Shown here piece after piece: positions 6,024 to 44,830 of a DNA stretch of 64,000 bases (the stretch's first letter is position 1; the number at the start of each line of letters is the position of its first letter). Source of the stretch: a virus (Duplodnaviria > Heunggongvirae > Uroviricota > Caudoviricetes); the IMG/VR virus record IMGVR_UViG_3300045988_149737. One strand, given 5' to 3'. The notes under the pieces are model-generated. The model was not told where the DNA came from. It searched no databases and saw nothing but the letters and a program-made list of their open reading frames with translations. A program made the translations under genes and the position numbers.

Positions 6024-7127
6024 GTGTCACTACTTTTGAATCGAGAGCATACGAACGGTCAGGTAACAAACGCATCGTATGCAAAAGTTATTGAGACGGT
6101 GCTTAAAAGCGGCGTGCAGGCTGATGATCGCACAGGCACTGGTACTTTAAGCACCTGCTACGTTCCCTCTTATTACATGCTTACTGGTGGGACTGTGCCG
6201 CTTATTTCTGGAAAGGCGGTAAATCTTAAGCCACTGCTTGTCGAACTTGAGTGGTATCTGAAAGGCACGGGCAACATCCAATTTCTCAAGGATAACGGCG
6301 TTAAGATTTGGGATGCATGGGCCGATGAGAATGGCGATTTGGGGCCGGTTTACGGTAAGCAGTGGCGTCGATGGGAAGATACCCGCATCGTGAGCCATAG
6401 TGAATATCTGAGCAAGATCGCTACTTTCCGTGAACGCGGGTACAAAGTCGAGGGATACCTGGGTATCAGTGAAGATCGCGTAGTGCTGTCCCGTGAAATC
6501 GATCAGCTACAGCGTATTGTCGATACACTGCGCACGAACCCTACCGATCGTCGCATCATGCTTAACGCATGGAACGTAGGCGAGCTTGAGGATATGAAAC
6601 TGCCACCTTGCCACTTTGTCTTCTCTTTGTGGAGTCGTGAGCTGGATTTTGAAACCCGTTTAACGATGGCAACTGACATTGGTCTTCAACACAGTCGCCT
6701 CGGTTACGAGTCTATCTACACCAAGATGCTATACGATCTGGAGGTGGACGGCAGTGTTACTGAAGCTGAACTGGATGAACTTGGAATCCCCAAACGCATC
6801 CTCAACTCCTGCCTCGTACAGCGTAGCGTAGACACTTTTGTTGGTATGCCATTCAATATTGCTGGCTATGGCATTCTCACTCATTTTCTCGCGAAGATTA
6901 CGGGTCACATGGCCGGTGCATTTGTGCATTTTGGCTTTGACGTGCATTTGTACAACAACCACATGGAAGGTGTGTGTGAGCTAATGAAACGACAGGCTCC
7001 AGAGCATTCAGATCCGGTCGTTATTTTCCCTCATGAATGGTCAGAGTTGGATGATTTCAAATGGGACGAGGTTTTAATTCTTGGCTATGACCCTCTATCG
7101 TGGATCAAGGTTCCAGTGGCGGTGTGA
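6024..7127 (+). CDS. thyA: thymidylate synthase family protein (ThyA-like, 367 aa with two insertions)
   Basis: DRTGTGTLS, IWDAWADENGDLGPVYGKQWR, catalytic LPPCH and MPFNIAGY (uracil-specifying Asn) are present; GTG start with RBS gagg; about 100 residues longer than canonical ThyA. Confidence 0.85.
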   Translation: MSLLLNREHTNGQVTNASYAKVIETVLKSGVQADDRTGTGTLSTCYVPSYYMLTGGTVPLISGKAVNLKPLLVELEWYLKGTGNIQFLKDNGVKIWDAWADENGDLGPVYGKQWRRWEDTRIVSHSEYLSKIATFRERGYKVEGYLGISEDRVVLSREIDQLQRIVDTLRTNPTDRRIMLNAWNVGELEDMKLPPCHFVFSLWSRELDFETRLTMATDIGLQHSRLGYESIYTKMLYDLEVDGSVTEAELDELGIPKRILNSCLVQRSVDTFVGMPFNIAGYGILTHFLAKITGHMAGAFVHFGFDVHLYNNHMEGVCELMKRQAPEHSDPVVIFPHEWSELDDFKWDEVLILGYDPLSWIKVPVAV

Positions 7128-7128
7128 T

Positions 7129-7542
7129 ATGGCAAGAGGTATGTATGTCTTATGCGAAATTGAAGGTGTGCTGGCAAATGCCAGCCATCGTAAATCAGTA
7201 TCTGACGCGGATGCAGGCCAGCTCATTGCCGGTGATGAACTCATTTTCCCCACTAGCCGTATGTTGCGTGGTTTTGCTCGCTCAGGGGCTGAAGTGGTGC
7301 TTATCAGTAGCCGCTCTGAAACTCTTGAAGCGCCCACTAAACGATGGCTGAAAGATTTTGGCGTTGATTACGACTGGCTTTATCTCGTACCGAATGGCAC
7401 CAGTTATGAGAAGCATATTAAGCGCACATTAGCGGAGCATAAAGGCGATCTGCTTATCGCTGCGCTGGTGCACGATCCTCGACTCCGTGCCGCTTTAGCC
7501 GACTCTCACCATCGACCGGTCATCTATGAGGTGAGCAAATGA
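7129..7542 (+). CDS. hypothetical protein
   Basis: ATG overlaps thyA stop (tgatATGg); ORF track shows a longer version from 7081 overlapping thyA. No confident motif. Confidence 0.45.
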   Translation: MARGMYVLCEIEGVLANASHRKSVSDADAGQLIAGDELIFPTSRMLRGFARSGAEVVLISSRSETLEAPTKRWLKDFGVDYDWLYLVPNGTSYEKHIKRTLAEHKGDLLIAALVHDPRLRAALADSHHRPVIYEVSK

Positions 7543-8015
7543 AGATGATCGCTGCTGTTGGCCGTAACTATGAGATCGGCATAGCGAATGAACTCCCCTG
7601 GCGTTGTTCTACCGATCTGAAGCTATTTAAGAGACTCACCAAAAACGCCACTGTCGTTATGGGGCGTAAAACGATGGAAAGTCTCAAACGCCCTCTTCCA
7701 GAGCGTCATAACCTCGTTTTGACGCGCTCTCATGGCTTTGTACCAAATGGATTCTACCCTGCTGGTGTGGATGATGTGTTGCGATTACCAGAGCCTGTGT
7801 GGGTGATTGGCGGGGAACAAATTTACTCGCTATTCATGCCGCATGTTGAAGAGATTTGGCTCTCCCACATCGGCGTTGATGTACCAAACGCCGATGCATT
7901 CTTCCCGGCAAGCATGATGCGTAACTTAGGCTTTGTGCCTGTTGAAACAGCTTATACCCAACGAGCCAGCGAGGAAGAGCCTGGCTTTTCGCAGATCGTA
8001 TACAGAAGGTCGTAA
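7539..8015 (+). CDS. folA: dihydrofolate reductase
   Basis: 158 aa; collinear with bacterial FolA (IAAVGRNYEIG..LPW, MGRKTMESL..PLPER.NLVLTRS, WVIGGEQIY); start overlaps upstream stop. Confidence 0.9.
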   Translation: MKMIAAVGRNYEIGIANELPWRCSTDLKLFKRLTKNATVVMGRKTMESLKRPLPERHNLVLTRSHGFVPNGFYPAGVDDVLRLPEPVWVIGGEQIYSLFMPHVEEIWLSHIGVDVPNADAFFPASMMRNLGFVPVETAYTQRASEEEPGFSQIVYRRS

Positions 8016-8659
8016 TGGATTACCGGATTGGGATCACTGGTGCTCAGGGCAGTGGGAAAACAACCCTGGCTAAATATATCGACAAACATTACGGAATCCC
8101 TTACGTGGATGCTGGTGTCGGAAGTTTGATGAGCCGCCTCGGTGTTCGAGTAGGTGATTCTATGCCTCTATATGAGCGGCTTCAGATTCAAATGGAAATA
8201 GCAAAGCATATAGAGCTACTTACGCGTGGTGTTGAAGGCTTTGTTATCGATCGCACACCTGCTGATGTTATGGCCTACACGTTGGATTTGGTCGGCCATA
8301 CCAATGAAGATCGGTGTATTGAGTTAGCCCTCGATATCGAAAAGTTTTGCCACAAAACTGCTATTTCAAACTTTAACGCCATTGCTGGCTTACGCCCGGG
8401 AGTCGCTCTCTCAGAGCGAGATTACTTGCGATCACAACGAGCATCATTAGACCGTCTGTATGTCGCTCGTATTGATGCGTTGATGTGCGGGGAACTGACA
8501 AAAATTCACCTGCATCCGCAAAGGGGAGATCTGCAAACCTTCGTCGTTTCCAACCGATATCGCACAGTTGAAGCAAGAGCCAGATCAGTAATGAGAATGC
8601 TCGATAACGCGGTAGAAAAGATAGAAAACCTCTTCTGTGGCCGAGTGACCGTTCATTAG
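8015..8659 (+). CDS. P-loop NTPase, putative (deoxy)nucleotide kinase
   Basis: Walker A GITGAQGSGKTT near N-terminus; size and context (after DHFR/TS/RNR) fit a dNMP-kinase-like enzyme. Exact activity unknown. Confidence 0.55.
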   Translation: MDYRIGITGAQGSGKTTLAKYIDKHYGIPYVDAGVGSLMSRLGVRVGDSMPLYERLQIQMEIAKHIELLTRGVEGFVIDRTPADVMAYTLDLVGHTNEDRCIELALDIEKFCHKTAISNFNAIAGLRPGVALSERDYLRSQRASLDRLYVARIDALMCGELTKIHLHPQRGDLQTFVVSNRYRTVEARARSVMRMLDNAVEKIENLFCGRVTVH

Positions 8660-8720
8660 AAATTGTTCGCCTCTTCGACATTGCGACAATAAAACTCTCA
8701 AAATGGGTTAAGGATAAAAA

Positions 8721-9140
8721 ATGTTTAGTGAAATGTTGCTTGAAGATGAACTGGATCGGAAAACAACAGAGGCTTTGATTCGTGTAGCGGACGAACATTC
8801 CCGGTCGCTTATGAGCGATCGAGAGGCTCGTCTGGCTATTCGTGCCATATTCGAAACTGTGCAGGGGCTTGTTGGCGCACAAGTAGGTGAAGCCATTAAC
8901 ATCGCCATGTCTCAGTTCAGTGAAGACAGTAAAAAGCCTCTGTTTCCTATGCATTTGATGCTGGCTGGTGGCACGGTGCTTTATATCTCTGTTTGTCTGG
9001 ATAGCAACCAAATCAACATTCTCAACACGGCGTCAGGTAAGTGGAAAGATCCGGTTGTCTGTGAAACCAGTGAAGAAACTTTGAAAAAAGCGGCTCAATT
9101 TGTACGTAGCGCACTACTTAAGGGCGCTAAGAAGTTGTAA
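8721..9140 (+). CDS. hypothetical protein
   Basis: 139-aa ORF with RBS aaggataaaaa; no motif recognised. Confidence 0.45.
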   Translation: MFSEMLLEDELDRKTTEALIRVADEHSRSLMSDREARLAIRAIFETVQGLVGAQVGEAINIAMSQFSEDSKKPLFPMHLMLAGGTVLYISVCLDSNQINILNTASGKWKDPVVCETSEETLKKAAQFVRSALLKGAKKL

Positions 9141-13885: not shown

Positions 13886-13940
13886 CGGTTGTTAGTGCAT
13901 ATGCATTGACCGTCTTTTCGTAAGCAATTCATGTAACTAG

Positions 13941-23608: not shown

Positions 23609-24709
23609 TCACACTGCGCGGAATGCGATTTCGCCAGGTATTACTTCACCTTGCCAATACATTTGGGCAGCAACGCGATCTGCGAGGTCACGATAAATAG
23701 CCGTAAATTCGCTATCTGGACGACTAATAACGGTTGGTGTTCCGTTATCCAGATCTTCACGAAGTGAGATATGAAGTGGCATTTGGCCTAACAACAGCGT
23801 GTTGTATTTCTCGGCCAGTTTCTGTGCGCCACCAGTGCCAAAAATTGGCTCGTGATGACCGCAGTTACTGCAAATATGCACACTCATGTTTTCGACGATA
23901 CCCAGTACCGGCACTTCGACTTTTTCGAACATCACAATGCCTTTCTTCGCATCGATCAGCGCGATGTCTTGCGGCGTAGTTACCACAACCGCACCAGTTA
24001 CAGGAATGTTCTGCGCCAGCGTCAACTGAATATCACCAGTGCCCGGCGGCATATCGAGAACGAGATAGTCCAGATCAGGCCACAGTGTTTCTTGCAACAT
24101 TTGCATCAACGCCTTGCTCGCCATAGGGCCACGCCACACCATCGCGTTGTCGTCAGTGACCAGATAACCAATTGAATTGGTTGCCAGGCCATGAGACATA
24201 ATAGGTGCCATGTGAGTACCGTCTGGTGAGGTTGGACGTTGGTTTTCCGCGCCCAGCATGGTTGGAATTGATGGCCCGTAGATATCGGCATCAAGAATGC
24301 CAACTTTCGCACCTTCAGCGGCTAACGCCAGCGCAAGGTTTACCGCCGTGGAAGATTTACCTACCCCACCCTTGCCTGAGCTGACGGCGATAATGTTCTT
24401 AACGCCATTAATGCCTGGTTGGTTTTTAACGCGCTTCAGCGTGGCAATGTTGTGAGACAGCTTCCAGTCGATAGCCTTTGCACCAGTGATACGGAGCAGA
24501 TCACCACTACATTGCTCTTTCAGGTCTTCAAAAGGCTTATTCCACACGAAAGGCATGATTAGTTCGACATGCAGTGTGTCATCCATCAACGCAACATGGT
24601 GTAACGCTTTAAGCGTAGTCAGGTTGTGTTTCAGGGTTGGGTGCTGAAAATTAGCCAGCGTACCGGCTACCATTGCTCTCAGGGCATCCGGCGATTTGGA
24701 CTCGCTCAT
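23609..24709 (-). CDS. apbC: iron-sulfur cluster carrier ATPase ApbC/Mrp
   Basis: 366 aa; P-loop SSGKGGVGKSS, CxxC (CSNCGH); collinear with my recollection of enterobacterial Mrp; divergent from metG as in E. coli; RBS aggag. Confidence 0.9.
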   Translation of the reverse strand: MSESKSPDALRAMVAGTLANFQHPTLKHNLTTLKALHHVALMDDTLHVELIMPFVWNKPFEDLKEQCSGDLLRITGAKAIDWKLSHNIATLKRVKNQPGINGVKNIIAVSSGKGGVGKSSTAVNLALALAAEGAKVGILDADIYGPSIPTMLGAENQRPTSPDGTHMAPIMSHGLATNSIGYLVTDDNAMVWRGPMASKALMQMLQETLWPDLDYLVLDMPPGTGDIQLTLAQNIPVTGAVVVTTPQDIALIDAKKGIVMFEKVEVPVLGIVENMSVHICSNCGHHEPIFGTGGAQKLAEKYNTLLLGQMPLHISLREDLDNGTPTVISRPDSEFTAIYRDLADRVAAQMYWQGEVIPGEIAFRAV

Positions 24710-24866
24710 CCCGTCTCCTTTATTTTAATTTGCGCAATTGTCGCCTTGTAGTGTACTCCAGCTACGACATTTAATCATTTATGAGAAATGCTGTTATCAC
24801 ATGGCAGACATAAGGCCATTTTGTTACTATCAAGCCCCTTTTCACTACAAAGAAGTAATGCCTACT

Positions 24867-26900
24867 ATGACCCAAGTCGCGAAGAAAATTCTGGTGACGT
24901 GCGCGCTGCCGTACGCTAACGGCTCAATCCACCTCGGCCATATGCTGGAGCACATCCAGGCTGATGTCTGGGTTCGTTACCAGCGAATGCGCGGCCACGA
25001 GGTTAATTTCATCTGTGCCGACGATGCCCACGGTACGCCGATCATGCTGAAAGCACAGCAGCTTGGTATCACACCGGAGCAGATGATTGGCGAAATGAGT
25101 CAGGAACACCAGACTGATTTCGCAGGCTTTAACATCAGCTATGACAACTATCACTCGACGCACAGCGAAGAGAACCGTCAGTTGTCTGAGCTTATCTATA
25201 CTCGCCTGAAAGAGAACGGTTTTATTAAAAACCGCACTATCTCTCAGTTGTACGACCCGGAAAAAGGCATGTTCCTGCCGGATCGTTTTGTAAAAGGCAC
25301 CTGCCCGAAATGTAAAGCGCCAGATCAATACGGCGATAACTGTGAAGTCTGCGGCGCAACATATAGCCCGACTGAATTGATCGAGCCGAAATCGGTGGTT
25401 TCTGGCGCTACCCCGGTAATGCGTGATTCCGAACACTTCTTCTTTGATCTGCCTTCTTTCAGCGAAATGCTGCAGGCATGGACCCGCAGCGGCGCGTTGC
25501 AGGAGCAGGTGGCGAACAAAATGCAGGAATGGTTTGAATCCGGCCTGCAACAGTGGGATATCTCCCGCGATGCGCCTTACTTCGGTTTTGAAATTCCGAA
25601 CGCGCCGGGCAAATATTTCTACGTCTGGCTGGACGCGCCGATTGGCTACATGGGTTCCTTCAAGAATCTGTGCGACAAGCGCGGCGATACCACCAGCTTC
25701 GATGAATACTGGAAGAAAGACTCCACCGCCGAGCTGTACCACTTCATCGGTAAAGATATTGTTTACTTCCACAGCCTGTTCTGGCCTGCCATGCTGGAAG
25801 GCAGCAACTTCCGCAAGCCGACCAACCTGTTTGTTCATGGCTATGTGACGGTGAACGGCGCGAAGATGTCCAAGTCTCGCGGCACGTTCATTAAAGCCAG
25901 CACCTGGCTGAATCATTTTGACGCTGATAGCTTGCGCTACTACTACACCGCGAAACTCTCTTCGCGCATCGATGATATCGACCTGAACCTGGAAGATTTC
26001 GTTCAGCGCGTGAATGCCGATATCGTCAACAAAGTGGTTAACCTGGCCTCCCGTAATGCAGGCTTTATCAACAAGCGTTTTGACGGCGTGCTGGCAAGCG
26101 AACTGGCTGACCCTGAACTGTACAAAACCTTTACCGATGCCGCTGAAGTGATTGGCGAAGCATGGGAAAGCCGCGAATTTGGTAAAGCTATCCGTGAAAT
26201 CATGGCATTGGCTGACCTGGCTAACCGCTATGTCGATGAACAGGCTCCGTGGGTGGTGGCGAAGCAGGAAGGTCGCGATGCCGATCTGCAAGCGATTTGC
26301 TCTATGGGCATTAACCTGTTCCGCGTGCTGATGACGTACCTGAAACCGGTACTGCCGAAACTGACTGAACGTGCGGAAGCGTTCCTGAATACGGAACTGA
26401 CCTGGGATGGTATCCAGCAACCGCTGCTGGCACATAAAGTGAATCCGTTCAAAGCACTGTATAACCGCATCGACATGAAGCAGGTTGAAGCACTGGTGGA
26501 AGCATCCAAAGAAGAAGTGAAAGCCACCGCCGCGCCAGTTACTGGCCCGCTGGCTGATGATCCGATTCAGGAAACCATCACCTTTGACGACTTCGCCAAA
26601 GTTGACCTGCGTGTGGCACTGATTGAAAACGCGGAGTTTGTTGAAGGCTCTGACAAACTGCTGCGTCTGACACTGGATCTCGGTGGTGAAAAGCGTAATG
26701 TCTTCTCCGGCATCCGTTCTGCTTATCCAGACCCACAGGCACTGATTGGTCGTCACACCATTATGGTGGCTAACCTGGCTCCGCGTAAAATGCGCTTCGG
26801 TATCTCCGAAGGCATGGTGATGGCTGCTGGCCCTGGCGGAAAAGACATCTTCCTGTTAAGCCCGGATGCCGGTGCTAAACCAGGCCACCAAGTTAAGTAA
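24867..26900 (+). CDS. metG: methionyl-tRNA synthetase
   Basis: 677 aa from ATG at 24867 ([30 protein letters not shown]); matches E. coli MetG as I recall it; ORF track start at 24738 is an upstream in-frame extension. Confidence 0.95.
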
Positions 26901-26919
26901 CTAAACAATCATTCTTCAC

Positions 26920-26948
26920 AATGCCCGGCAACACGCTGGGCATTTTCA
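26920..26948 (+). terminator. terminator after metG
   Basis: aatgccc-ggcaacacgct-gggcatt followed by ttcat. Confidence 0.45.
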
Positions 26949-27034
26949 TATAGACACAATCCCTCCTGATTTACACAATCCCTAAAACAATTTGTTTTCT
27001 ACCTTTTGTTGATTGAGATAATAAGCCACATAAG

Positions 27035-27048
27035 AAAACAAATTGTTT
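27035..27048. promoter_or_regulatory. operator-like palindrome AAACAA-at-TGTTT (family 1) in a promoter region
   Basis: Lies after TTTTCT(-35)-17 bp-ATAATA(-10); a second copy aaaacaatttgtttt at 26985-26999 overlaps the -35. Confidence 0.45.
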
Positions 27049-27053
27049 AGGAG

Positions 27054-27302
27054 ATGAAGATGTTTGGAACAGCAAAAGAAATCATCGAGAAACTGAAAAA
27101 CTATCCAGAAGACGAACCCTTACTCATGGTTATGTGGCACAAAGAAGATATTGCTGAAGTAAGGACAGATCTCACTGATGAACAATGCGTACAGGTGATG
27201 CAAAAAATCAGACAATGCCATAACGCTGATGTCGGCGTTAATTGGGAGGTTATATCCACTACGGCGAATGAGTTGTTTCCAAACGGGGAGAGGGGATGTT
27301 AA
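27054..27302 (+). CDS. hypothetical small protein
   Basis: 82 aa; RBS aggag; alternative start 27060. Confidence 0.45.
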   Translation: MKMFGTAKEIIEKLKNYPEDEPLLMVMWHKEDIAEVRTDLTDEQCVQVMQKIRQCHNADVGVNWEVISTTANELFPNGERGC

Positions 27303-27595
27303 ATATTACTCAATCCTACCAGGTGGCATTGATCAGTTCATCTCATACATCAGAGGAAGATGCTCGCCGATTCATGATCGCAAGCAATGAGCTGGATTGG
27401 GTTTCACAAATTGAGTACGGTTGCATAGTTCACGCCGGGTTACAGGACGATGACTGGAAAGATAACTTGCGTCGATATGGTATATCCGAGGGCGCGATTT
27501 CGAACATTCAGAAGGTACTTGATGTAGGCTTTGACTCTGTACATTTTGATTGTGGCGCACCGGTCGTTGAAGGGCTTGAGTGCTGGAACTGGTAA
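27296..27595 (+). CDS. hypothetical small protein
   Basis: 99 aa; overlaps upstream stop; RBS ggggagagggg. Confidence 0.45.
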   Translation: MLNITQSYQVALISSSHTSEEDARRFMIASNELDWVSQIEYGCIVHAGLQDDDWKDNLRRYGISEGAISNIQKVLDVGFDSVHFDCGAPVVEGLECWNW

Positions 27596-27699
27596 ATCTG
27601 AAAACATATTCAAACCGTTGATAATGGCGGTCACAATTTGATTCTTTTCTATAAGAATCCGTTGATCGCCACTACCCCCATTCCATACCCGCAATCACA

Positions 27700-28500
27700 T
27701 CCTTAAATTTCAATAAGTTATAGTTGTTTATACAATCAAGAAAACAACTGAATAACAGATCAACGAAACATCAACGCTTTCACCCGATTTGGTCTAAAAA
27801 ATTGACGTTTTCACACATCACTGCTTATACCCGTAATCCCACGCAGCAGATAGCGCCACAGCGTCCAAATTTCACCACAGACGACCCAACACACTACCAA
27901 CAAAAACACACGCTCAAAATCGCTCTCGTTGCGTTACACAACCATATAAACAACTTATTTTCAGGCATAACAAAACAACTAAATAACACATGTGCCATTA
28001 CCAAAAACAACCAACCTCTTTATGGCAGGCTACCGAAAAGACCCACCTCTTCTTCCCAGGCTACCGGACAACCAACCTAACTTTCACAGGCAATCCGAAA
28101 ACATTCATACGCGCGATACCCACGACACGCCATTCCCCAAACAGCGAAGAAACACCAGAATCACTGAAACCCCAACGAAGCCTGTAACCGCAAGGATTCT
28201 CTCAATCCCAAAAGACACGAAACAGAACAATCACGGGAAACGCCATTACCCAATACACGAATAACTACAAAAGCCTTTCACACACTCCAGACAAACAACT
28301 CAAACACAATAACGAAAGGAATCGCCCACCTGCCATTACTCCATACACGGAGAAGAACAATCACCAAAACGACGAGAACACCCCATAGAAGAACCACTGC
28401 AAAACGAACGAAACCACATACACCGACAGAGAGAACAACACACCCAATTCACCAACAGAAATAGTCGCCGTATAGAACATTCTGGAAGGAGTGAGCATTA
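27700..28500. other. ~800-bp non-coding tract with extreme strand compositional skew (A+C-rich, G- and T-poor on plus strand)
   Basis: By eye G is only around 10% on the plus strand; the only ORF (27724-28080) is low-complexity. Confidence 0.6.
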
Positions 28501-28584
28501 ACGCCTATAGAGAGGTTGAAACAGATAAAACACGAAGAAAACACAACATGTATAGCGAAGAAGCCAGGTATGTATAAGTGGGGA

Positions 28585-28615
28585 GGGAAGGAGGGGTGTC
28601 GCCTCCTTTTTCGTA
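28585..28615 (+). terminator. terminator-like hairpin inside the non-coding region
   Basis: aggagg-ggtgtcg-cctcct followed by ttttcg. Confidence 0.4.
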
Positions 28616-28674
28616 TTTATTCAACTCCTGATTTTATCCCCCGTAACACCCCTACGGTCAGCCTTCGGTCCATA

Positions 28675-28815
28675 CAGGGAAAAGGCTGCATCCCGCTACA
28701 GAAACGGCTGGGTTGCCTTCGGGGAACGGCTGGAGGTTTTCAGGGAAACGGTCGAGTTGCCTGTGTGGATTTCGGGAAAAGGCTCGATGCCGGTTCAGGA
28801 ACGGCGGCGTACCGG
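28675..28815. repeat. six tandem ~22-bp iteron-like repeats (core GGGAAA[A/C]GGC)
   Basis: cagggaaaaggctg / cagaaacggctgg / ggggaacggctgg / agggaaacggtcg / gggaaaaggctcg / aggaacggcggcg in head-to-tail order. Confidence 0.65.
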
Positions 28816-29188
28816 TATAGCGTGAGGGAGAGTTGCGGCTACCCACCTGTAATGTGCGGGAAGAAGAGAGGCGCTAACGTGCAGGCGAACTTACTTACCG
28901 CTGGATTCCCTCTGAATGCCCAACTACAGCGTAATTGTGCCAGACAGCCAACGGGTCACAATCGATTTCAGTAGGTTTTCGGGGAGAGGATTATTCTGCC
29001 CACCAGCCACTTTCGGCCACCAAATCAGAATAATGTAAAAAGTGTACTCGGTACTGAACCTGAAAACTCACTGCCAAAACAACATTCACCGGAATAAAAT
29101 CCTTTTTCGCCTTTGCGTTATTGCGATAATAACGCCAACAAGAAAACAACATATTTAGACGTTGTAGAAACGAAGTGAGGATGAAGAG

Positions 29189-29407
29189 ATGATTAAGATG
29201 CCTGTGACGGTTGAGGTGTGGGGCGTGGATTCCCTGGCTGAGTGTCTGGATGCAGTGGGGCCGGAGTTGTACCGCAAGTTGTGGTCGTTCGTCCCGGCAG
29301 AAGGGGAATCGCCCAAAGGGAAGGATATCTGGCACCTGCTGAGTGAAGATGAAAAGCGGGAGCTGGTGGGCGCGGTACACAGCGAGTTCCCGGACGACGA
29401 AGATTAA
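29189..29407 (+). CDS. hypothetical small acidic protein
   Basis: 72 aa; family-1 operator and RBS upstream; hairpin terminator downstream. Confidence 0.45.
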   Translation: MIKMPVTVEVWGVDSLAECLDAVGPELYRKLWSFVPAEGESPKGKDIWHLLSEDEKRELVGAVHSEFPDDED

Positions 29408-29546
29408 GAGTGAGGCCACCAGCACGGTGGCTTTTGTCGCTATTAACCTCCGGGGCAGCGCAGCACCGTAACGATATACTTTGTGGCCGTTTTCTTACTG
29501 GTATTGTTTACGCAATTCAGAAAACATGTTGTTTAAGGATTGCTTT

Positions 29547-29876
29547 ATGTTTGCAAATATCGACATCAACCAAATCAAGAAATTAACTCAAAAAGAGTTT
29601 GATCAGTTTTATGAGTTAGAAGGTTGGTCTTCCACTCTGATCAATTCGCGGTGGGTGCTTGAGCTGATGACTCGTGATGACGCACCTGCTTTGATGATTT
29701 GCGACATGGGTGAAGATGCTGACTTTATGGATATGAGCGAATTTTGTGTGGACACATACAACCGCAGCCAGAAGTACTACTTCACATGCGATAGCGAAAA
29801 TGACGTGATTTCTAAGGTCTATCTTCACCTCGTCCAGCATTGGGACGTTCAGGAGTTTCTTGAGGTATTCGCGTAA
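29547..29876 (+). CDS. hypothetical small protein
   Basis: 109 aa from ATG at 29547 (RBS aagga); promoter and operator upstream; hairpin aagccagc-att-gctggctt downstream. Confidence 0.45.
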   Translation: MFANIDINQIKKLTQKEFDQFYELEGWSSTLINSRWVLELMTRDDAPALMICDMGEDADFMDMSEFCVDTYNRSQKYYFTCDSENDVISKVYLHLVQHWDVQEFLEVFA

Positions 29877-30030
29877 TCCCAACCAAAGCCAGCATTGCTG
29901 GCTTAACTTAATCTGTAGCCGCAGGGAAGAACCTGCATATCGCTCATGCGCCTGATCAATATGCTTTGTAGCCGTTTTCTTACTGGTATTATTTACGCCA
30001 TTGAGAAAACAAGTTGTTTACGGAGTTGTG

Positions 30031-30342
30031 ATGAAAAGTTCATTGGTTCTTGGTCTGGACAAAGACCAGAAGAGAAAAGAGAAGCCTGCACTGGTTGCTC
30101 AACTAACTTTGCTGGACATCGTTGCCAATGGAACATCTATTCGTCTGTTCCGTGAAACAGCGGTGTCTTTCGATAAAAACACCTTTACTCGTTATGTAAT
30201 GAATGTTCGCCGCCAGCGTGGAAAAGGCTGGATGGCGTTTCAAAGAATGTGGCCGGAACATCAGCTCGAACTGGCCTTGATGGAAGTTAACCGCGTGGCC
30301 CAGCAAGAGATTCAGAGAGCATCAGTGATGGCAATAGCCTGA
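30031..30342 (+). CDS. hypothetical small protein
   Basis: 103 aa from ATG at 30031; ORF track start 30001 is a TTG inside the operator. Confidence 0.45.
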   Translation: MKSSLVLGLDKDQKRKEKPALVAQLTLLDIVANGTSIRLFRETAVSFDKNTFTRYVMNVRRQRGKGWMAFQRMWPEHQLELALMEVNRVAQQEIQRASVMAIA

Positions 30343-30377
30343 TAATGTGCAAGTGGTAATTAGTCGACAGTACGACA

Positions 30378-30408
30378 GCCCCGCCATCCTTACGGGGCTT
30401 TTTTGTTT
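30378..30408 (+). terminator. rho-independent terminator
   Basis: agccccg-ccatcctta-cggggct followed by tttttgtttt. Confidence 0.6.
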
Positions 30409-30468
30409 TGTAAGTACATACTTACGATCATAGAATATAAAAATAACCAATACACTACGGAGAGTGAA

Positions 30469-30864
30469 ATGACCGTTAAACGCGAAAAACTGACAGTTGA
30501 TGTTTACTATGCCTCTGAAACCGCCGAAGGTAAGAATGTGGCAAAAATCACCGTTGTTACGTACAACACCGAAACTGGTGCCGAAGTACAGGCCAGTACG
30601 ATCGTGCGTAAAGGTGATGCCTCCGGCGGCGAGTACGCGACTCAATACCAGTCCATTCTCGATGCAACTGACCCGCTGCTGCTGAAAATCGAGAACTACT
30701 TCCGCCAGGTTGATGAAGAGGTGTTTGAAACCATGATGAATATGGTTAATTCCGTATTCGCCTCCAGCCTGAACACCAGCACCACCTGGATTGGCCAGTA
30801 CGGTCTGCGTATTACCTCCGGCATTCCTGCTGATACCTTAATCCCTGAAAGCGTATTCGCTTAA
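30469..30864 (+). CDS. hypothetical protein
   Basis: 131 aa from ATG at 30469 (RBS acggagag); family-2 palindrome gtaagta-ca-tacttac at 30410-30425 upstream. Confidence 0.45.
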   Translation: MTVKREKLTVDVYYASETAEGKNVAKITVVTYNTETGAEVQASTIVRKGDASGGEYATQYQSILDATDPLLLKIENYFRQVDEEVFETMMNMVNSVFASSLNTSTTWIGQYGLRITSGIPADTLIPESVFA

Positions 30865-30981
30865 TCCTCTTTAAATGGCGCGTAAACCGCGCCATTTTCT
30901 TATGCCCGATAATAATTTGTTTTCTGCCTTATCTGATTTGTGAAAATGATTTCACTGAAGCAACTTAATAAGGAAACCATC

Positions 30982-31356
30982 ATGGGACTTGATATCTACA
31001 TCGAGACGCAGCCAAAAAACGATCTGAATAATGAGGCATCCAGAAAGCGGGTTGCTCACTTCCGTAAGTTCAATGCGCTCGTTGGGTGGATGGAGCGCAA
31101 CGTAGGTGAAGTCGAAAATTGTGAGCTTTTAGAATTAACGATGAATGACATTTGTTTTCTGAAGGCTCATTTGATGCACATAAACGAAAGCAATTGCGAA
31201 GAGTACTTGCCTACTCGGGAAGGTTTTTTCTTCGGCAGTCAGGAGTACGATGAAGGTTACTGGCATGATGTGGGGGAGTTGAAAGAGCTTGTGGAAGATC
31301 TGATTAAGAACCACGACTTTCACAATAACAGACTGACCTTCTGCGCCTGGTGGTAA
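30982..31356 (+). CDS. hypothetical protein
   Basis: 124 aa from ATG at 30982 (RBS aaggaaa). Confidence 0.45.
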   Translation: MGLDIYIETQPKNDLNNEASRKRVAHFRKFNALVGWMERNVGEVENCELLELTMNDICFLKAHLMHINESNCEEYLPTREGFFFGSQEYDEGYWHDVGELKELVEDLIKNHDFHNNRLTFCAWW

Positions 31357-31357
31357 A

Positions 31358-31501
31358 TATGGGCGATTTCAAGAAACGCCTGAAGGAAAGAGCCGAGATG
31401 GCCAGAAAGCAAAACGCCTCTTCTGTCATCAGATACGCAAGGCAGTTTAGTCGCAACAACAAATCAGTTGAGGAAAAGATCCTTAGCGTAATCGAGCGAT
31501 A
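31358..31501 (+). CDS. hypothetical small basic protein (47 aa)
   Basis: ATG 1 nt after upstream stop; below ORF-track cut-off; followed by a terminator. Confidence 0.3.
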
Positions 31502-31507
31502 ATTATT

Positions 31508-31531
31508 AAGACCACCAGCATTGGTGGTCTT
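31508..31531 (+). terminator. hairpin terminator (shared sequence family)
   Basis: aagaccacca-gca-ttggtggtctt; near-identical hairpins at 29414-29437 and 31979-32002. Confidence 0.5.
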
Positions 31532-31691
31532 AAATGACTTTTAATAACCGAAGGTTAATTTTAAACCTGGCTATCAACTTCCAGAACCTTTCTTGTGTAT
31601 TCAGCCTGAATTAACTTCTTTTCTGCCTTATCTACACTGCGATAATTACACCAACAAGAAAACAACATGTTTACGCAGTGAGGATATGCAC

Positions 31692-31973
31692 ATGACTGAT
31701 TTCACCATTACCCCAAAAGCACAAAATGTATTCCTTGAATCATGGCTGGACTTGCCGGAAACAGAACAGCAAGAAATGGATCATGTGGAATATGACGAGC
31801 AGGTAAGCACGCGATTCTTCCACTTTGAGGGCTGCGTTTACGATATTGCCGACTTCATGAGAGATGACCGCTTCCCTGGATGGCACGCAAGCTATCCACT
31901 TAACGCCTTCGCCATGCTGATGATCCGTGTGGGTGATTCAGGGGATACCATCGACATCGGTCTGCTCCACTAA
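31692..31973 (+). CDS. hypothetical small acidic protein
   Basis: 93 aa from ATG at 31692 (RBS tgaggat 7 nt upstream). Confidence 0.45.
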   Translation: MTDFTITPKAQNVFLESWLDLPETEQQEMDHVEYDEQVSTRFFHFEGCVYDIADFMRDDRFPGWHASYPLNAFAMLMIRVGDSGDTIDIGLLH

Positions 31974-31978
31974 AGACT

Positions 31979-32002
31979 AAGGCCACCAGCATTGGTGGCC
32001 TT
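31979..32002 (+). terminator. hairpin terminator (shared sequence family)
   Basis: aaggccacca-gca-ttggtggcctt. Confidence 0.5.
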
Positions 32003-32177
32003 AAATGACCATCTTGTTTCCCGCAGGCTAAAAACACCAACCTCTTACCTCCAGGCAACCGACAAACCCACCTGTTCCCGTCCGGCTACCGCAACTTTCC
32101 ACTTTGACGCCTTATTCGTACAACGATAATTAACACCAACAAGAAAACAATTTGTTATTTACGATAAGGAATTAATC

Positions 32178-32660
32178 ATGAATTTTATCGCTACTGTAAA
32201 CGCACCCGCACATGGCAATATCGCTGTAACGTTCTCTGACATTGAAAAACGAGTACTTGGTGCATGGCGCGACAATGAGACGGTAGAACTGTCAGAACAA
32301 GAAAAATGCATTATTGCACGCGACATCATTGGCAATCGTCGTTACTCGCGGGTATTTGAGAAAGCATATGTGGTAAATTCTGGATTCGGAACGTTCGTCT
32401 TCCCGGTACGCTCCGGGCGATTCTGCCAGTCCAAGCTGATTGAGTTCGCTACGCAGATTTCTGTCTGGATTAAAACTCAATCGTCGTTCAAATTTTCCGA
32501 CGATGAAGCAGTATCGCAGGGGATGCGGATCGCCAACAATGCGATTAAATGCAAAAATATTACGTATACCGCTGGCGTTGACACATGGAAACTGTTTTGC
32601 GCTAACTTTATGCTGAATGTATACGCAAGCAACCGCATCCACATCCTTGATGGCGTGTAA
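32178..32660 (+). CDS. hypothetical protein
   Basis: 160 aa; TTTGAC-17 bp-ATAATT promoter and operator aaaacaatttgtt upstream; RBS aagga. Confidence 0.5.
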   Translation: MNFIATVNAPAHGNIAVTFSDIEKRVLGAWRDNETVELSEQEKCIIARDIIGNRRYSRVFEKAYVVNSGFGTFVFPVRSGRFCQSKLIEFATQISVWIKTQSSFKFSDDEAVSQGMRIANNAIKCKNITYTAGVDTWKLFCANFMLNVYASNRIHILDGV

Positions 32661-32709
32661 CTGAGAAGAGGGCCAGAAACGGCCCTTTCTCTATAGCCAC
32701 CAGCTGCCG

Positions 32710-32800
32710 CAGGGAAATTTTCAGAAACGGCGAGGAACGCATTCATGAGCCGACGGGGAACGGCCAGGATTTTTTCGGGAAACGGCTGCATTCGCCTTTA
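32710..32800. repeat. second array of GGGAAACGGC-type repeats
   Basis: cagggaaatttt / cagaaacggcg / ggggaacggcc / gggaaacggctg; same core as 28675-28815. Confidence 0.55.
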
Positions 32801-33274
32801 TATAGAAAAAACATCGGGAAGCTGGTGGAATCCAACCAGCGGTTGTCGGACAGGTGAGCGGGGAAAATTATGATGACTTTCGTCGCCTGAGACATCCAGA
32901 TTTCTTTCGTAGCGTAATCACATATGTGATTAAGTGGTGTGATTATGTGAAAAATCACGCGCACATAATACGCGAGCGGATACGGAACAAAACAAAATGC
33001 CGATCCGCGCCGACAATTAAACGCGGATCATAAAGCAAGAATAAAAGCCAATGATTAACCATACACCATAGCGCAATATAACGCGTTTTAAGCGCGTTAA
33101 TGTGTTGAGTAATGGGTATGTACTGGTAAGGATATAAAAGCGCGTCTGTGGCGTTATTTTGGCGCTTATTTTATGTTGTTGGAGTGAGTCAAAGACAATA
33201 AAAAAGCGCCATCATTGGCGCGTTATGGTGGAAGTATTAGAAACGAAAAAAGCGCCCATAGTGGGCGCTAGATT

Positions 33275-33505
33275 TTATTTATGTAAACTGATTTCAAATC
33301 CCATTTCTACAAACGCTTTTAACATTAAAAATATATCAGCGTCATTCACGTCTGCTTTTTTTCGCTCCTGGTCGCTCAATAAGTCAATTTTGCGCGTCGT
33401 TTCATCGATAAACTCGACTGCGCGCCCAGCGTAACCAGCGATCCCAGCGATGCGATTAACAAAATATTCATTGCGCACGTTAACGCCAGAGATAAGAATA
33501 AACAT
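33275..33505 (-). CDS. hypothetical small protein
   Basis: 76 aa; flanked on both sides by minus-strand hairpin terminators (gcgccca-tag-tgggcgc at ~33250 and ~33525). Confidence 0.45.
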   Translation of the reverse strand: MFILISGVNVRNEYFVNRIAGIAGYAGRAVEFIDETTRKIDLLSDQERKKADVNDADIFLMLKAFVEMGFEISLHK

Positions 33506-33552
33506 GATTAAGCTCCTTAAAAGCGCCCATAGTGGGCGCCAGATTCCATTAA

Positions 33553-43255: not shown

Positions 43256-44830
43256 ATGGAATTGAACGACAAACAAATTAAGGATCTGGTGGCGCGACGC
43301 CACCCGGAATACGAAAAGAAAAAAGAACATTGGGACTTCCTCGCCAGCACTTACGCTGGCGGGCGTGGTTGGTTTACAGACAATATCTTTCGTTACTTTA
43401 AAGAGGGAGATCAGGAGTTTAAGGAGCGAGTTGAGCGTGCTTATCGCTTCAACCACACTCGTGAGGTGGTAAACCTCATCAACAAATATCTCTTTAAAGA
43501 AGACATTCATAGAAATATCGAAGAGGCACCAGAGCAGATCCGCAATTTCTGGAAACGTGCGACTCGCCAGAATGCCTCTATTGACTCATTTATGGCCGCT
43601 ATTGATTTGCAGTCGTCTATTTACGGTCGCATATGGGTTGTTGTCGATAGCACGATGAGTGGTGATGTTGAGTCAGTAGCTGACGAGAAAAAGAAAGATG
43701 CTCGCGCCTACGCCTACTGGATTTCACCTCAGCAAATGCTGGATGTGGCATGGGACGACGACGGGAATATGTTGTGGGCGTTAATTGTGGAAGTCGCTCG
43801 TGATGACGAAGATCCTTTTACTTCTACAGGTCAGGAATACCAACGTTATCGTCTGTGGACACAAAACGAGTGGTATCTGTTCCGTGAGGAAGTGAAGAAG
43901 GGCGCTGGTGGAGCAGGTCGCCGTCAGGCAAAAGTTATTTTAGAGGACAGCGGCGCGCATAATCTCGGCGTAGTTCCTGTGTTTCCTGTTGATTGTATTG
44001 GAGAAAGTGAATCACCGTATTTCAGCCCATCGTTGATCGATGATATCGCTTATCTTGATCGTGCGGTTGCAAACTATCTGTCAAACCTTGATGCCATTAT
44101 TCAGGATCAGACATTTAGCCAGTTGGCTATACCGGTACAGTCGCTTTTACCTGGTGATGAAAACCACACTAAAGTGCTTGAAATGGGCACAAAGCGAGTC
44201 TTCACCTACGATTCTGAAGGTGGAAACCAGCCGTTTTATCTGTCACCAGACCCGAAACAAGCTCAGATGATCATCACTACGATTAAGACGGTGATTAACG
44301 AAATCTACCATTCAGTTGGTGTAGCTGGTGAGCGAACGAAGCAGGACAACGCACAGGGAATCGATAATTCATCTGGTGCCGCAAAAATGTATGACTTCCA
44401 GCGTGTAAATAGCTTGCTTGTCACAAAAGCAGAGCGTCTGGAAAGGGCTGAACGCCAAATCATGCTACTGGTTGCGAAATGGATGGGGGTAGATCTGAAC
44501 GAAGACCACTCTTTAATTGCGTATCCAGAAAGTTTCGATATTCGTGGCCTTACTGATGAATTTTCTGTTGCCGAGAAACTGTCATTACTTCAGGCACCGG
44601 ACTCTGTACGTCGTCACCAGATGGAAATGCTTATTGAGAAGATTTTCCCGAACATTACTGAGGCGATGAAAAAGGAATTTGATAAAGATCTCTTGAATTT
44701 TCCGCCAAAAAATGATCTAAATACCCTTGAAAATAAGTCAGTACTTACTTATGATCGTGGTGCAGCCCAAGAAAGCGGGCAAGATCAACCCCGAGGGAAT
44801 GGGGACTCATCTACTCAAGAGAACGAGTGA
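43256..44830 (+). CDS. portal protein
   Basis: 524 aa between terL and scaffold/capsid genes; assignment by position and size. Confidence 0.7.
   Translation: MELNDKQIKDLVARRHPEYEKKKEHWDFLASTYAGGRGWFTDNIFRYFKEGDQEFKERVERAYRFNHTREVVNLINKYLFKEDIHRNIEEAPEQIRNFWKRATRQNASIDSFMAAIDLQSSIYGRIWVVVDSTMSGDVESVADEKKKDARAYAYWISPQQMLDVAWDDDGNMLWALIVEVARDDEDPFTSTGQEYQRYRLWTQNEWYLFREEVKKGAGGAGRRQAKVILEDSGAHNLGVVPVFPVDCIGESESPYFSPSLIDDIAYLDRAVANYLSNLDAIIQDQTFSQLAIPVQSLLPGDENHTKVLEMGTKRVFTYDSEGGNQPFYLSPDPKQAQMIITTIKTVINEIYHSVGVAGERTKQDNAQGIDNSSGAAKMYDFQRVNSLLVTKAERLERAERQIMLLVAKWMGVDLNEDHSLIAYPESFDIRGLTDEFSVAEKLSLLQAPDSVRRHQMEMLIEKIFPNITEAMKKEFDKDLLNFPPKNDLNTLENKSVLTYDRGAAQESGQDQPRGNGDSSTQENE

Follow-up and report, generated by a model that had tools for sequence, protein, structure and literature searches.

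Rho-dependent terminators, such as lambda tR1, rely on Rho utilization (rut) sites and are recognized by the 'C>G bubble' criterion. Protein-sponge RNAs include CsrB/CsrC and CrcZ, and the prophage anti-sRNA AgvB is a phage-encoded decoy of a GU-rich small RNA (sRNA). Phage P4 carries two iteron-bearing sites, ori and crr, that lie about 4.5 kb apart. In phage T5, the injection-stop (iss) region (NC_005859, 9140-10149) is gene-free over 1-1.8 kb and holds several repeat families together with a 200-bp tract whose GC skew is +0.54. The locus considered here has features in common with each of these. It is a 1593-base region (27596-29188) of a 64,000-nucleotide viral DNA, IMG/VR record IMGVR_UViG_3300045988_149737, referred to below as the window. 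Since the region's matches are IncFIB-type plasmids and SSU5-family phages, the window is identified by sequence as an SSU5/pHCM2-type phage-plasmid of Escherichia coli. The reading favored here, at somewhat less than even confidence, is that the region is a conserved gene-free cis-acting boundary module, in which a structure-free rut-like transcription barrier is followed by phased protein-binding repeats.

The module is widespread, being shared by all SSU5/pHCM2-type phage-plasmids. Its 1593 bases match 367 plasmids of PLSDB by megablast and 838 by blastn, all of them non-mobilizable 'IncFIB' elements of about 105-115 kb from Escherichia, Klebsiella, Enterobacter, Salmonella, Citrobacter and Cronobacter, as well as the phages Cyrano, PhiR41_1, CMS-2020a and SSU5. 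It is present in 243 of 5426 complete E. coli genomes, plasmid-borne every time, and a pattern search of IMG/VR returned the same family alone (65-98% identity). The window itself aligns with pXH988_2 starting at position 43701 of the latter. Synteny is kept in more than 800 plasmids: the region always separates a variable cargo hotspot from a conserved cluster of small genes under operator control, such that the cargo upstream differs while the genes downstream are conserved. Cross-lineage homology begins abruptly at about 27612 and runs on into the small-gene cluster (29189-32660), whose proteins match only PHROGs of unknown function. Upstream cargo consists of metG and the gene for a DUF5983 protein in the window, and of restriction-modification, DUF262, DUF4942, GIY-YIG, ydfZ or DUF1380 genes in other lineages. 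The hotspot spans 23609-27595 and carries a full methionyl-tRNA synthetase gene (metG, 24738-26900), a minus-strand ApbC/Mrp-like ATPase and the DUF5983 protein. Large Klebsiella IncFIB plasmids (136-237 kb, including locus L013, the 237-kb K. pneumoniae pWCGKP294-1) hold no more than the initial ~460 bp of the region, adjoining the same DUF262/type I restriction-modification cargo as in the phage-plasmid L011, which suggests that these plasmids represent cointegrates or captured fragments. Of the 25 records listed, out of 243 in total, 24 have no PGAP annotation under the match. The module is unannotated and no description of it was met in the literature searched, where queries on SSU5 termini, origin or transcripts turned up the LF82/Cyrano RNA sequencing (RNA-seq) study alone. 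It is nonetheless among the best-conserved stretches of these elements and one of the largest non-coding ones.

Homologues were aligned as sets of 10 and then 17 non-redundant sequences from four to five lineages, at 60-97% pairwise identity. A model's earlier reading of the window, made from the sequence only, had seen no credible open reading frame (ORF) in this region, and the alignments agree: stop-to-stop frames vary between homologues, and substitutions lack a 3-nt periodicity. No conserved protein-coding frame, which the same reading had named as evidence that would count against it, runs across the region. At deep divergence each of the three phases receives an even share of the substitutions, without codon periodicity; at shallow divergence, in the Salmonella/Enterobacter clade, variable sites number 33, 22 and 26 by codon position, with no third-position excess. 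As a positive control, three flanking genes from the same genomes give identities of 0.62, 0.73 and 0.40 by codon position. Between distant lineages the region retains 61-67% identity, compared to 35-40% at third codon positions of the flanking genes, and about 45% of alignment columns in its A+C-rich part are invariant in six lineages. Because it is more conserved than the neutral sites of its neighbors, the region is not decaying; as judged from these alignments, its DNA sequence is under purifying selection. Mosaic recombination has occurred (locus L005), and the histories of individual segments therefore differ.

The features on which the argument turns are the following.

27592-28518, plus strand: A+C-rich, G-poor, structure-free tract, a C>G 'bubble' (composition, skew, folding).
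27612-27672, plus strand: conserved 5' boundary element (alignment, invariant words, consensus fold).
27737-27979, plus strand: three operator-like boxes at 27737-27748 (CAAGAAAACAAC), 27945-27962 (AAACAACTTATTTTC) and 27968-27979 (module alignment, conservation).
27802-27831, plus strand: weak candidate promoter TTGACG-N18-TATACC after an A-tract, conserved in all lineages.
27994-28358, plus strand: dispersed repeats GCCATTAC..ATACACGGAGAAGAAC starting at 27994, 28129, 28242 and 28332 (repeat family D9, alignment).
28004-28100, plus strand: three tandem 30-31-nt repeats, ACCCACCTCTT..CAGGCTACCGAAAAG (repeat families D2, D4).
28575-28612, plus strand: hairpin whose 5' arm is a purine-rich run (GGGGAGGGAAGGAGGGG), then a U-run, intrinsic-terminator-like (terminator scan).
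28675-28819, no strand assigned: six iteron-like direct repeats, core C(A/G)GGGAAA(A/C)GGCTG (motif search, alignment).

In the boundary reading, a polymerase leaving the cargo genes would produce untranslated, unstructured, C-rich and G-poor RNA over about 0.9 kb. Rho would load on this tract RNA and end transcription, the transcript would be trimmed back to a 5' hairpin (27625-27671) that would hold the 3' ends, and a 3' hairpin (28585-28612) would stop any escaping polymerase. Given such a barrier at the tract, the early cluster would stay under the control of its own operators, whatever cargo is inserted upstream. The last third of the region would present helically phased direct repeats to a putative phage protein that binds them at the DNA level, and this platform probably serves a lytic-cycle function. 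From composition and transcript levels, we infer Rho as the terminating factor and insulation as the selected function.

Composition is the most striking property of the tract. Between 27841 and 28470 the fractions of A, C, G and T are 0.40, 0.33, 0.13 and 0.14, which makes this the most G-poor 600-nt stretch of the window. The C/G ratio exceeds 1 in every 78-nt window across all 927 nt of 27592-28518 (median 2.5), and its core at C/G>=1.5 (27718-28493, 776 nt) is about five times longer than the longest other run on either strand of the window. The strand-skewed CA-rich tract described from the sequence only is thus confirmed by composition and skew, at 0.9 kb, and its A+C-rich character is preserved in all lineages. 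Folding agrees with composition: the minimum free energy (MFE) of the plus-strand RNA is -12.1 kcal/mol per 100 nt, compared to -29.5 +/- 3.0 for 42 other windows (5.8 standard deviations weaker) and -24.6 for the tract's own minus strand. Sliding alignment folds on both strands reveal no shared structure in the tract (structure conservation index, SCI, <0.3), and only two terminal hairpins are shared. The tract RNA thereby has the composition and openness expected of a rut site, namely about 80 nt or more of C-rich, G-poor, unstructured and untranslated RNA.

Within this skewed background, specific words are strongly maintained. The 30-31-nt CA repeats, whose spacing corresponds to three helical turns, contain an 18-nt word, CAGGCTACCGAAAAGACC, that is near-invariant across lineages, as is the copy of the dispersed repeat at 28332 in all lineages. 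The CA segment is also duplicated outside of the region, as had been noticed from the sequence: 28003-28087 and 32030-32108 share 73% identity (E=5e-8). The pyrimidine core of the CA repeats, CCCACCTCTTCTTCCC (28047-28061), is similar to the 3' end of 16S rRNA and complementary both to the purine run at 28585-28598, the 5' arm of the 3' hairpin, and to GGGAAGAAGAG at 28858 (28858-28868); this potential long-range pairing of 8-14 bp recurs in other lineages. Searches for known RNA classes were negative. Rfam 15 at E<=1 over 26.5-33.5 kb has nothing in the region, ARAGORN finds no tRNA or tmRNA in it, and an antisense target search across the 108-kb element yields only chance-level 11-13-mers. 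A ToxI-like antitoxin was considered on account of the tandem 30-31-nt repeats, but no ToxN-type Pfam domain lies downstream and no ToxI Rfam match was obtained.

Transcript data come from the phage Cyrano, which is the plasmid of strain LF82 and is 97.6% identical to the window over the region. Two spurious ORFs are annotated there, CYRAN_103 (27724-28080) and CYRAN_104 (28570-28974), and they serve as probes of the tract and of the segment that follows. Values in S1 Table of PMC9928086 are given as log2(FPKM+5), where FPKM is fragments per kilobase per million, for five lysogenic conditions of LF82. CYRAN_103 lies at the floor of 2.32 (0 FPKM) in both LB replicates and reaches at most 4.27 (14 FPKM) in medium or macrophages, whereas CYRAN_102, just upstream, reaches up to 9.2, or about 590 FPKM (PMC9928086). 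CYRAN_104 ranges from 2.6 to 4.7, while the first small gene downstream reaches up to 7.8 and neighboring early genes about 200 FPKM in macrophages (PMC9928086). Between CYRAN_102 and CYRAN_103 the signal drops from as much as about 590 FPKM to 0-2 FPKM, so that cargo-side transcription appears to end at the 5' edge of the region. There is no abundant RNA over the tract in lysogens, even under partial SOS induction. A long non-coding RNA (ncRNA) gene, one of the functions proposed from the sequence only, is therefore not supported in a constitutive form, since the tract lacks an Rfam match, conserved structure, a conserved sigma-70 promoter and lysogen reads.

The boxes within the region belong to a kind that flanks extended -10 promoters at 10 or more early genes. 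In these small-gene modules, an extended -10 (TGnGATAAT) is bracketed by inverted boxes, TTGTTTTCT ... AGAAAACAAnTTGTTT. The word AAGAAAACAA occurs 7 times compared to 0.34 expected, and two ATCAACG repeats follow the first box (27759-27765 and 27770-27776). Such promoter-operator modules are found at 13937, 14666, 19258, 27031, 27737, 29139, 29517, 30002, 31655, 32140, 36089 (minus strand) and 41258; from their sequence they look like the regulon of one putative repressor, comparable to the C1 operators of P1. A promoter upstream of the tract is harder to find. The promoter scan detects no consensus sigma-70 promoter there in the Salmonella (L006) or Klebsiella (L011) versions, and in the window one weak 9-of-12 match (27598-27625) that is not conserved. 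The TTGACG-N18-TATACC candidate has no T at -7, and the scan passes it over in the window, L006 and L011; it is a lead only.

The two ends of the barrier are marked by hairpins of different character. The 5' element contains an invariant inverted repeat, TGGCGGTCA (27625-27633) and TGATCGCCA (27663-27671), around a small hairpin (TTTCTATAAGA), and has a consensus fold (E=-11.2, SCI 0.46, z=-5.8). Its 9-bp inverted repeat gives no covariation evidence because the stem never varies. In the 3' hairpin, ten pairs are kept in at least 92% of cells through G-U/G-C/A-U exchanges, including one doubly compensated pair. G-U pairs are valid on the plus strand only, which implies selection on a plus-strand transcript, or on single-stranded DNA, at this hairpin. 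The terminator that had been proposed at this place is in part upheld: a hairpin and a U-run exist at 28585-28612 and the pairing is conserved, but they are not exceptional on their own (3 terminator-like sites compared to 3.9 expected in shuffles; fold z=-1.25). The terminator scan calls an intrinsic terminator in the window and in Klebsiella L011, whereas Salmonella-type lineages keep the hairpin without the U-tract. Covariance folding, which had been suggested as a check, accordingly has a divided outcome, with two shared terminal hairpins, pair exchanges in the 3' one, and no conserved structure in the tract between them.

The six head-to-tail repeats reported from the sequence only are real, although degenerate, and span 28675-28819. 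They start at 28675, 28699, 28720, 28741, 28773 and 28796, with the core CRGGGAAAMGGCTG (also CRGGGAAAMGG). Their spacings of 24, 21, 21, 32 and 23 bp correspond to about two or three helical turns, and in nearly all other lineages spacings are likewise 21-23 or ~31 bp. Identity is 0.81 in the cores and 0.56 in the spacers. Four of the eight strict matches of the 64-kb window fall within 100 bp here; Tandem Repeats Finder calls no repeats in this stretch, the six copies being too degenerate. Homologues gain and lose whole 22-nt units, leaving about three to six per lineage. As RNA, the repeat region is less structured than shuffled sequence (z=+1.72). Phasing, core conservation and indels of whole units support a role of the repeats as DNA sites, in the form of an iteron-like protein-binding array. 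On the same sequence evidence they would be expected to bind a protein, and a protein-titration locus, as had also been proposed, is possible.

An iteron-type origin of plasmid replication is a different matter. The sequence-only reading was right as to iteron-like phasing, cores and unit indels, but the repeats are not the plasmid origin. The repA gene lies about 33 kb from the region and is flanked by its own 21-bp iterons (CTCTATAGTGGWT), with DnaA-box-like and GATC-rich sequence; these iterons are unrelated in motif to the CRGGGAAAMGGCTG repeats. No DnaA box occurs in the region, even at one mismatch. No AT-rich unwinding element lies beside the repeats, the sole AT-rich patch (27703-27760) being ~950 bp away and partly specific to the E. 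coli lineage, and no rep or initiator gene is adjacent. GC skew carries no origin signal and is dominated by gene orientation. Natural-variant rather than experimental evidence comes from Yersinia pestis pMT1 (L061, NZ_CP009784.1, locus 7078-8795), which keeps the IncFIB replicon, both the 93-aa and the 160-aa gene and the block downstream but is missing the region. The loss stems from an IS1541-associated deletion of ~30 kb (nrdAB to the small-gene cluster), extending from the window's first genes to the 93-aa gene. Because pMT1 is a stable IncFIB plasmid without the region, plasmid maintenance is independent of it.

Several points weigh against the boundary reading as a full account. A rut site needs only about 80 nt of suitable composition. 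The tract extends over 0.9 kb, with 9-18-nt words that are near-invariant and with three repeat families, and the reading under-explains this excess. Since a barrier requires neither such length nor such words, the region must do more than insulate. Klebsiella lineages keep the module next to cargo genes that are oriented away from it. The loss of reads might stem from the 5' hairpin or from fast decay of unstructured RNA rather than from Rho, and the RNA-seq data represent lysogenic states of one strain only. The U-tract of the 3' hairpin is confined to the E. coli lineage. Finally, the neighborhood offers no candidate for a repeat-binding protein, as the neighboring proteins match PHROGs of unknown function alone. 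The region is functional and widespread, and its function is partly resolved.

The alternatives draw largely on features at the 3' edge of the region and beyond.

28935-29010, no strand assigned: conserved block with a minus-strand Chi site at its end (29000-29007; CCACCAGC on the top strand), kept in homologues (alignment, Chi search).
29118-29157, plus strand: promoter-operator module of the first small gene, which starts at 29189 (module alignment).
29000-32830, both strands: Chi sites at 29000, 29416, 31512, 31983 and 32697 (minus) and at 29362 and 32821 (plus), a pattern conserved in other lineages.
32003-32095, plus strand: second copy of the 30-nt CA repeats, upstream of the 160-aa gene promoter, also in homologues.
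32700-32795, no strand assigned: second, shorter GGGAAACGG-type array after the terminator of the 160-aa gene, lineage-restricted.

The module of the first small gene combines an extended -10 TGcGATAAT (29121-29130) with a box CAAGAAAACAAC (29139-29150) and an invariant word, TTATTGCGATAATAAC. The second GGGAAACGG array occurs in the E. coli lineage, L038 and L045; six other non-E. coli loci, five of them with enough downstream sequence, yielded none, and no further GGGAAACGG clusters were found elsewhere, for instance near parA. The second array lies in a second gene-free stretch of ~0.9 kb (32660-33550), where plus- and minus-strand gene blocks converge. This stretch also holds several palindromes and a hairpin, AAAAGCGCC(C)AT..TGGGCGC, in three copies (~33205, 33245 and 33522), and its only Rfam match, the one match of that search, is noise (E=0.23).

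Among the alternatives, the one that survives best, and still an unlikely one, is a lytic-cycle replication origin or another site that forms DNA ends, where a phage initiator would bind the phased repeats. Derepressed transcription through the operator-controlled tract would activate such a site, and the Chi cluster would protect rightward sigma-form tails; this elaboration is equally unlikely. The phage-plasmid carries its own helicase, primase and Pol III alpha genes, so a lytic origin must exist somewhere, and phased, core-conserved, iteron-like repeats, set among several repeat families in one of the largest non-coding regions, would be a suitable place. Silence in lysogeny and operator-like boxes would suit a site used in the lytic cycle, and dispensability for maintenance in pMT1 fits a phage-only role. 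The distribution of Chi is also suggestive. Chi (GCTGGTGG) occurs 21 times in the window compared to 1.6 expected, and 28 times in the 108-kb composite genome, whose minus strand has 5 of its 12 sites within the 3.8 kb immediately right of the region (P=3.5e-5). By the polarity of Chi, minus-strand sites here would act on RecBCD that travels to the right from the region, and it is because of this orientation that a DNA-end model stays open. On the other hand, three of the Chi sites are embedded in paralogous terminator hairpins (ggCCACCAGCattggtgg) that look like copies of one module, and the clustering may partly reflect this descent. The absence of DnaA boxes, the distance and partial lineage specificity of the AT-rich patch, the lack of an adjacent initiator gene among small proteins of unknown PHROGs and a GC skew ruled by gene orientation also count against an origin, and the RepA origin could serve lytic replication too. 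In L008, L009, L010 and L015 (pHCM2, Enterobacter, Cronobacter and SSU5) the Chi-holding block is replaced by a 200-250-bp insertion before the first small-gene promoter (~29046-29117), which bears an 80-aa minus-strand ORF of the WP_016051703 family.

Less probable again is a lytic-phase ncRNA of ~0.75 kb (~27.84-28.61 kb) that would act as an unstructured multi-site decoy for Rho (a 'super-rut'), Hfq or S1. A tract that is poor in structure yet conserved in sequence, with repeated motifs, resembles sponge RNAs, its 3' hairpin is conserved in a strand-specific manner, operator-like boxes and the conserved TTGACG-N18-TATACC lie upstream, and lysogenic silence would fit repression. Against it, a consensus promoter was not found at the equivalent place in the window and two other lineages, and the tract stays at or below 14 FPKM even in macrophages, where neighboring early genes reach ~200 FPKM. 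The abundant transcript that is typical of sponge RNAs is not seen in any of the five lysogenic LF82 conditions (0-14 FPKM). There is no Rfam family and no antisense target in the element, and the helical phasing of the repeats speaks for DNA rather than RNA. A GcvB sponge, for which AgvB is the precedent, was rejected. With a verified gcvB sequence, of which R1 was tested, the best duplex is -25.5 kcal/mol compared to -28.7 +/- 2.6 in dinucleotide shuffles, site counts are equal, and pairing with the GU-rich seed is no better than with shuffles; it is an effect of composition. The more extreme version, in which the tract is the gene for a highly expressed lytic-phase 'super-rut' RNA of ~0.75 kb soaking up Rho or another protein that binds single-stranded RNA, is improbable. 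If true, it would provide antitermination in trans across 30-kb early operons, with the phased repeats as its on-switch.

A similarly slim chance attaches to the region as a virion DNA terminus or first-entry region, comparable to the T5 injection-stop region, with the small-gene cluster as the first genes to be expressed. T5-like terminases are distant relatives of the large terminase (~25% identity over 91%), the iss region is likewise gene-free beside small pre-early genes, with repeat families and a skewed tract, and the inward-facing Chi cluster would fit a DNA end here. The likeness is only architectural, without sequence similarity to T5 or pre-early homology of the small proteins, and closer relatives of the terminase are not T5-like. 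No deposited phage record begins or ends in the region, and pac or cos would more usually lie in the 0.47-kb gap that precedes the terminase genes.

If the region were a remnant of decayed gene cassettes, or a protein-coding gene, and had no non-coding role of its own, this would account for the degenerate copies of the promoter-operator module inside the tract. It would also account for a frame, 'xGC CAT TAC' (C/R-H-Y...), that is open for 150-293 codons in the equivalent of 27806-28480 in some Salmonella, Enterobacter and Klebsiella lineages (L005, L006, L008, L010, L011, L038 and L055); at 150-227 codons in the shuffle test, it is longer than in shuffles (P=0.003-0.04). Coding was rejected because this frame is interrupted in the close relatives L007, L009, L012 and L057 and repeatedly in the E. 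coli lineage; frames are inconsistent throughout, and the even distribution of variable sites over codon positions (33/22/26) does not show the third-position excess of a gene. The long open frame may be a side effect of conserved repeats that are poor in T and G. Decay is at odds with conservation above that of neutral sites next door, and descent from a paralogue of the 160-aa gene was rejected, the flanking repeats being the sole shared part. This family of explanations is close to excluded. So, and more firmly, is an iteron origin or an incompatibility or copy-control locus of the plasmid replicon that binds RepA, in the manner of P1 oriR/incA: the ~22-bp-period direct repeats resemble plasmid iterons in form, but the 21-bp-period RepA iterons 33 kb away have no motif in common with them, DnaA boxes are absent and pMT1 retains its IncFIB replicon without the region, such that this proposal is close to refuted.

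SSU5/pHCM2-type phage-plasmids are common in clinical Enterobacteriaceae, where they carry resistance and defense cargo, and the module forms the fixed edge of their cargo hotspot. If it insulates the early genes from cargo transcription, it would account for the tolerance of these elements to rapid cargo turnover, and a portable, very long Rho-type insulator would be on offer. If it is instead a lytic origin, a DNA end or the source of a decoy RNA, it would close a basic gap in what is known of a major phage-plasmid family.

Set beside the systems introduced at the outset, the module has partial counterparts in all of them. As at rut sites, the tract RNA is untranslated, C-rich, G-poor and unstructured, it follows expressed genes, and reads drop away where it begins; unlike rut sites, the tract is ~10 times longer, strongly conserved in sequence and furnished with internal repeat families. 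Plasmid iterons, such as those of P1 oriR/incA and of the element's own RepA, share with the repeats a 21-22-bp period, conserved cores and variable spacers and copy number, but the repeats here differ in motif from those of RepA, have neither a rep gene nor a DnaA box or unwinding element beside them, and are dispensable for maintenance. Sponge RNAs such as CsrB/CsrC, CrcZ and AgvB likewise present many short repeated motifs on accessible RNA, whereas the tract has no lysogen expression or Rfam match, and its pairing with GcvB is explained by composition alone. The E. coli lineage resembles P4 ori/crr in having two arrays of the same repeat ~4 kb apart, though the second is absent from several lineages and no alpha-like primase-helicase is encoded between them. 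With the T5 injection-stop region, the module shares a gene-free extent of at least 1 kb beside small early genes with their own promoters, repeat families and a skewed tract; it differs in having no sequence or protein homology to T5, whose region contains DnaA-box-like repeats and adjoins the end of the terminal repeat.

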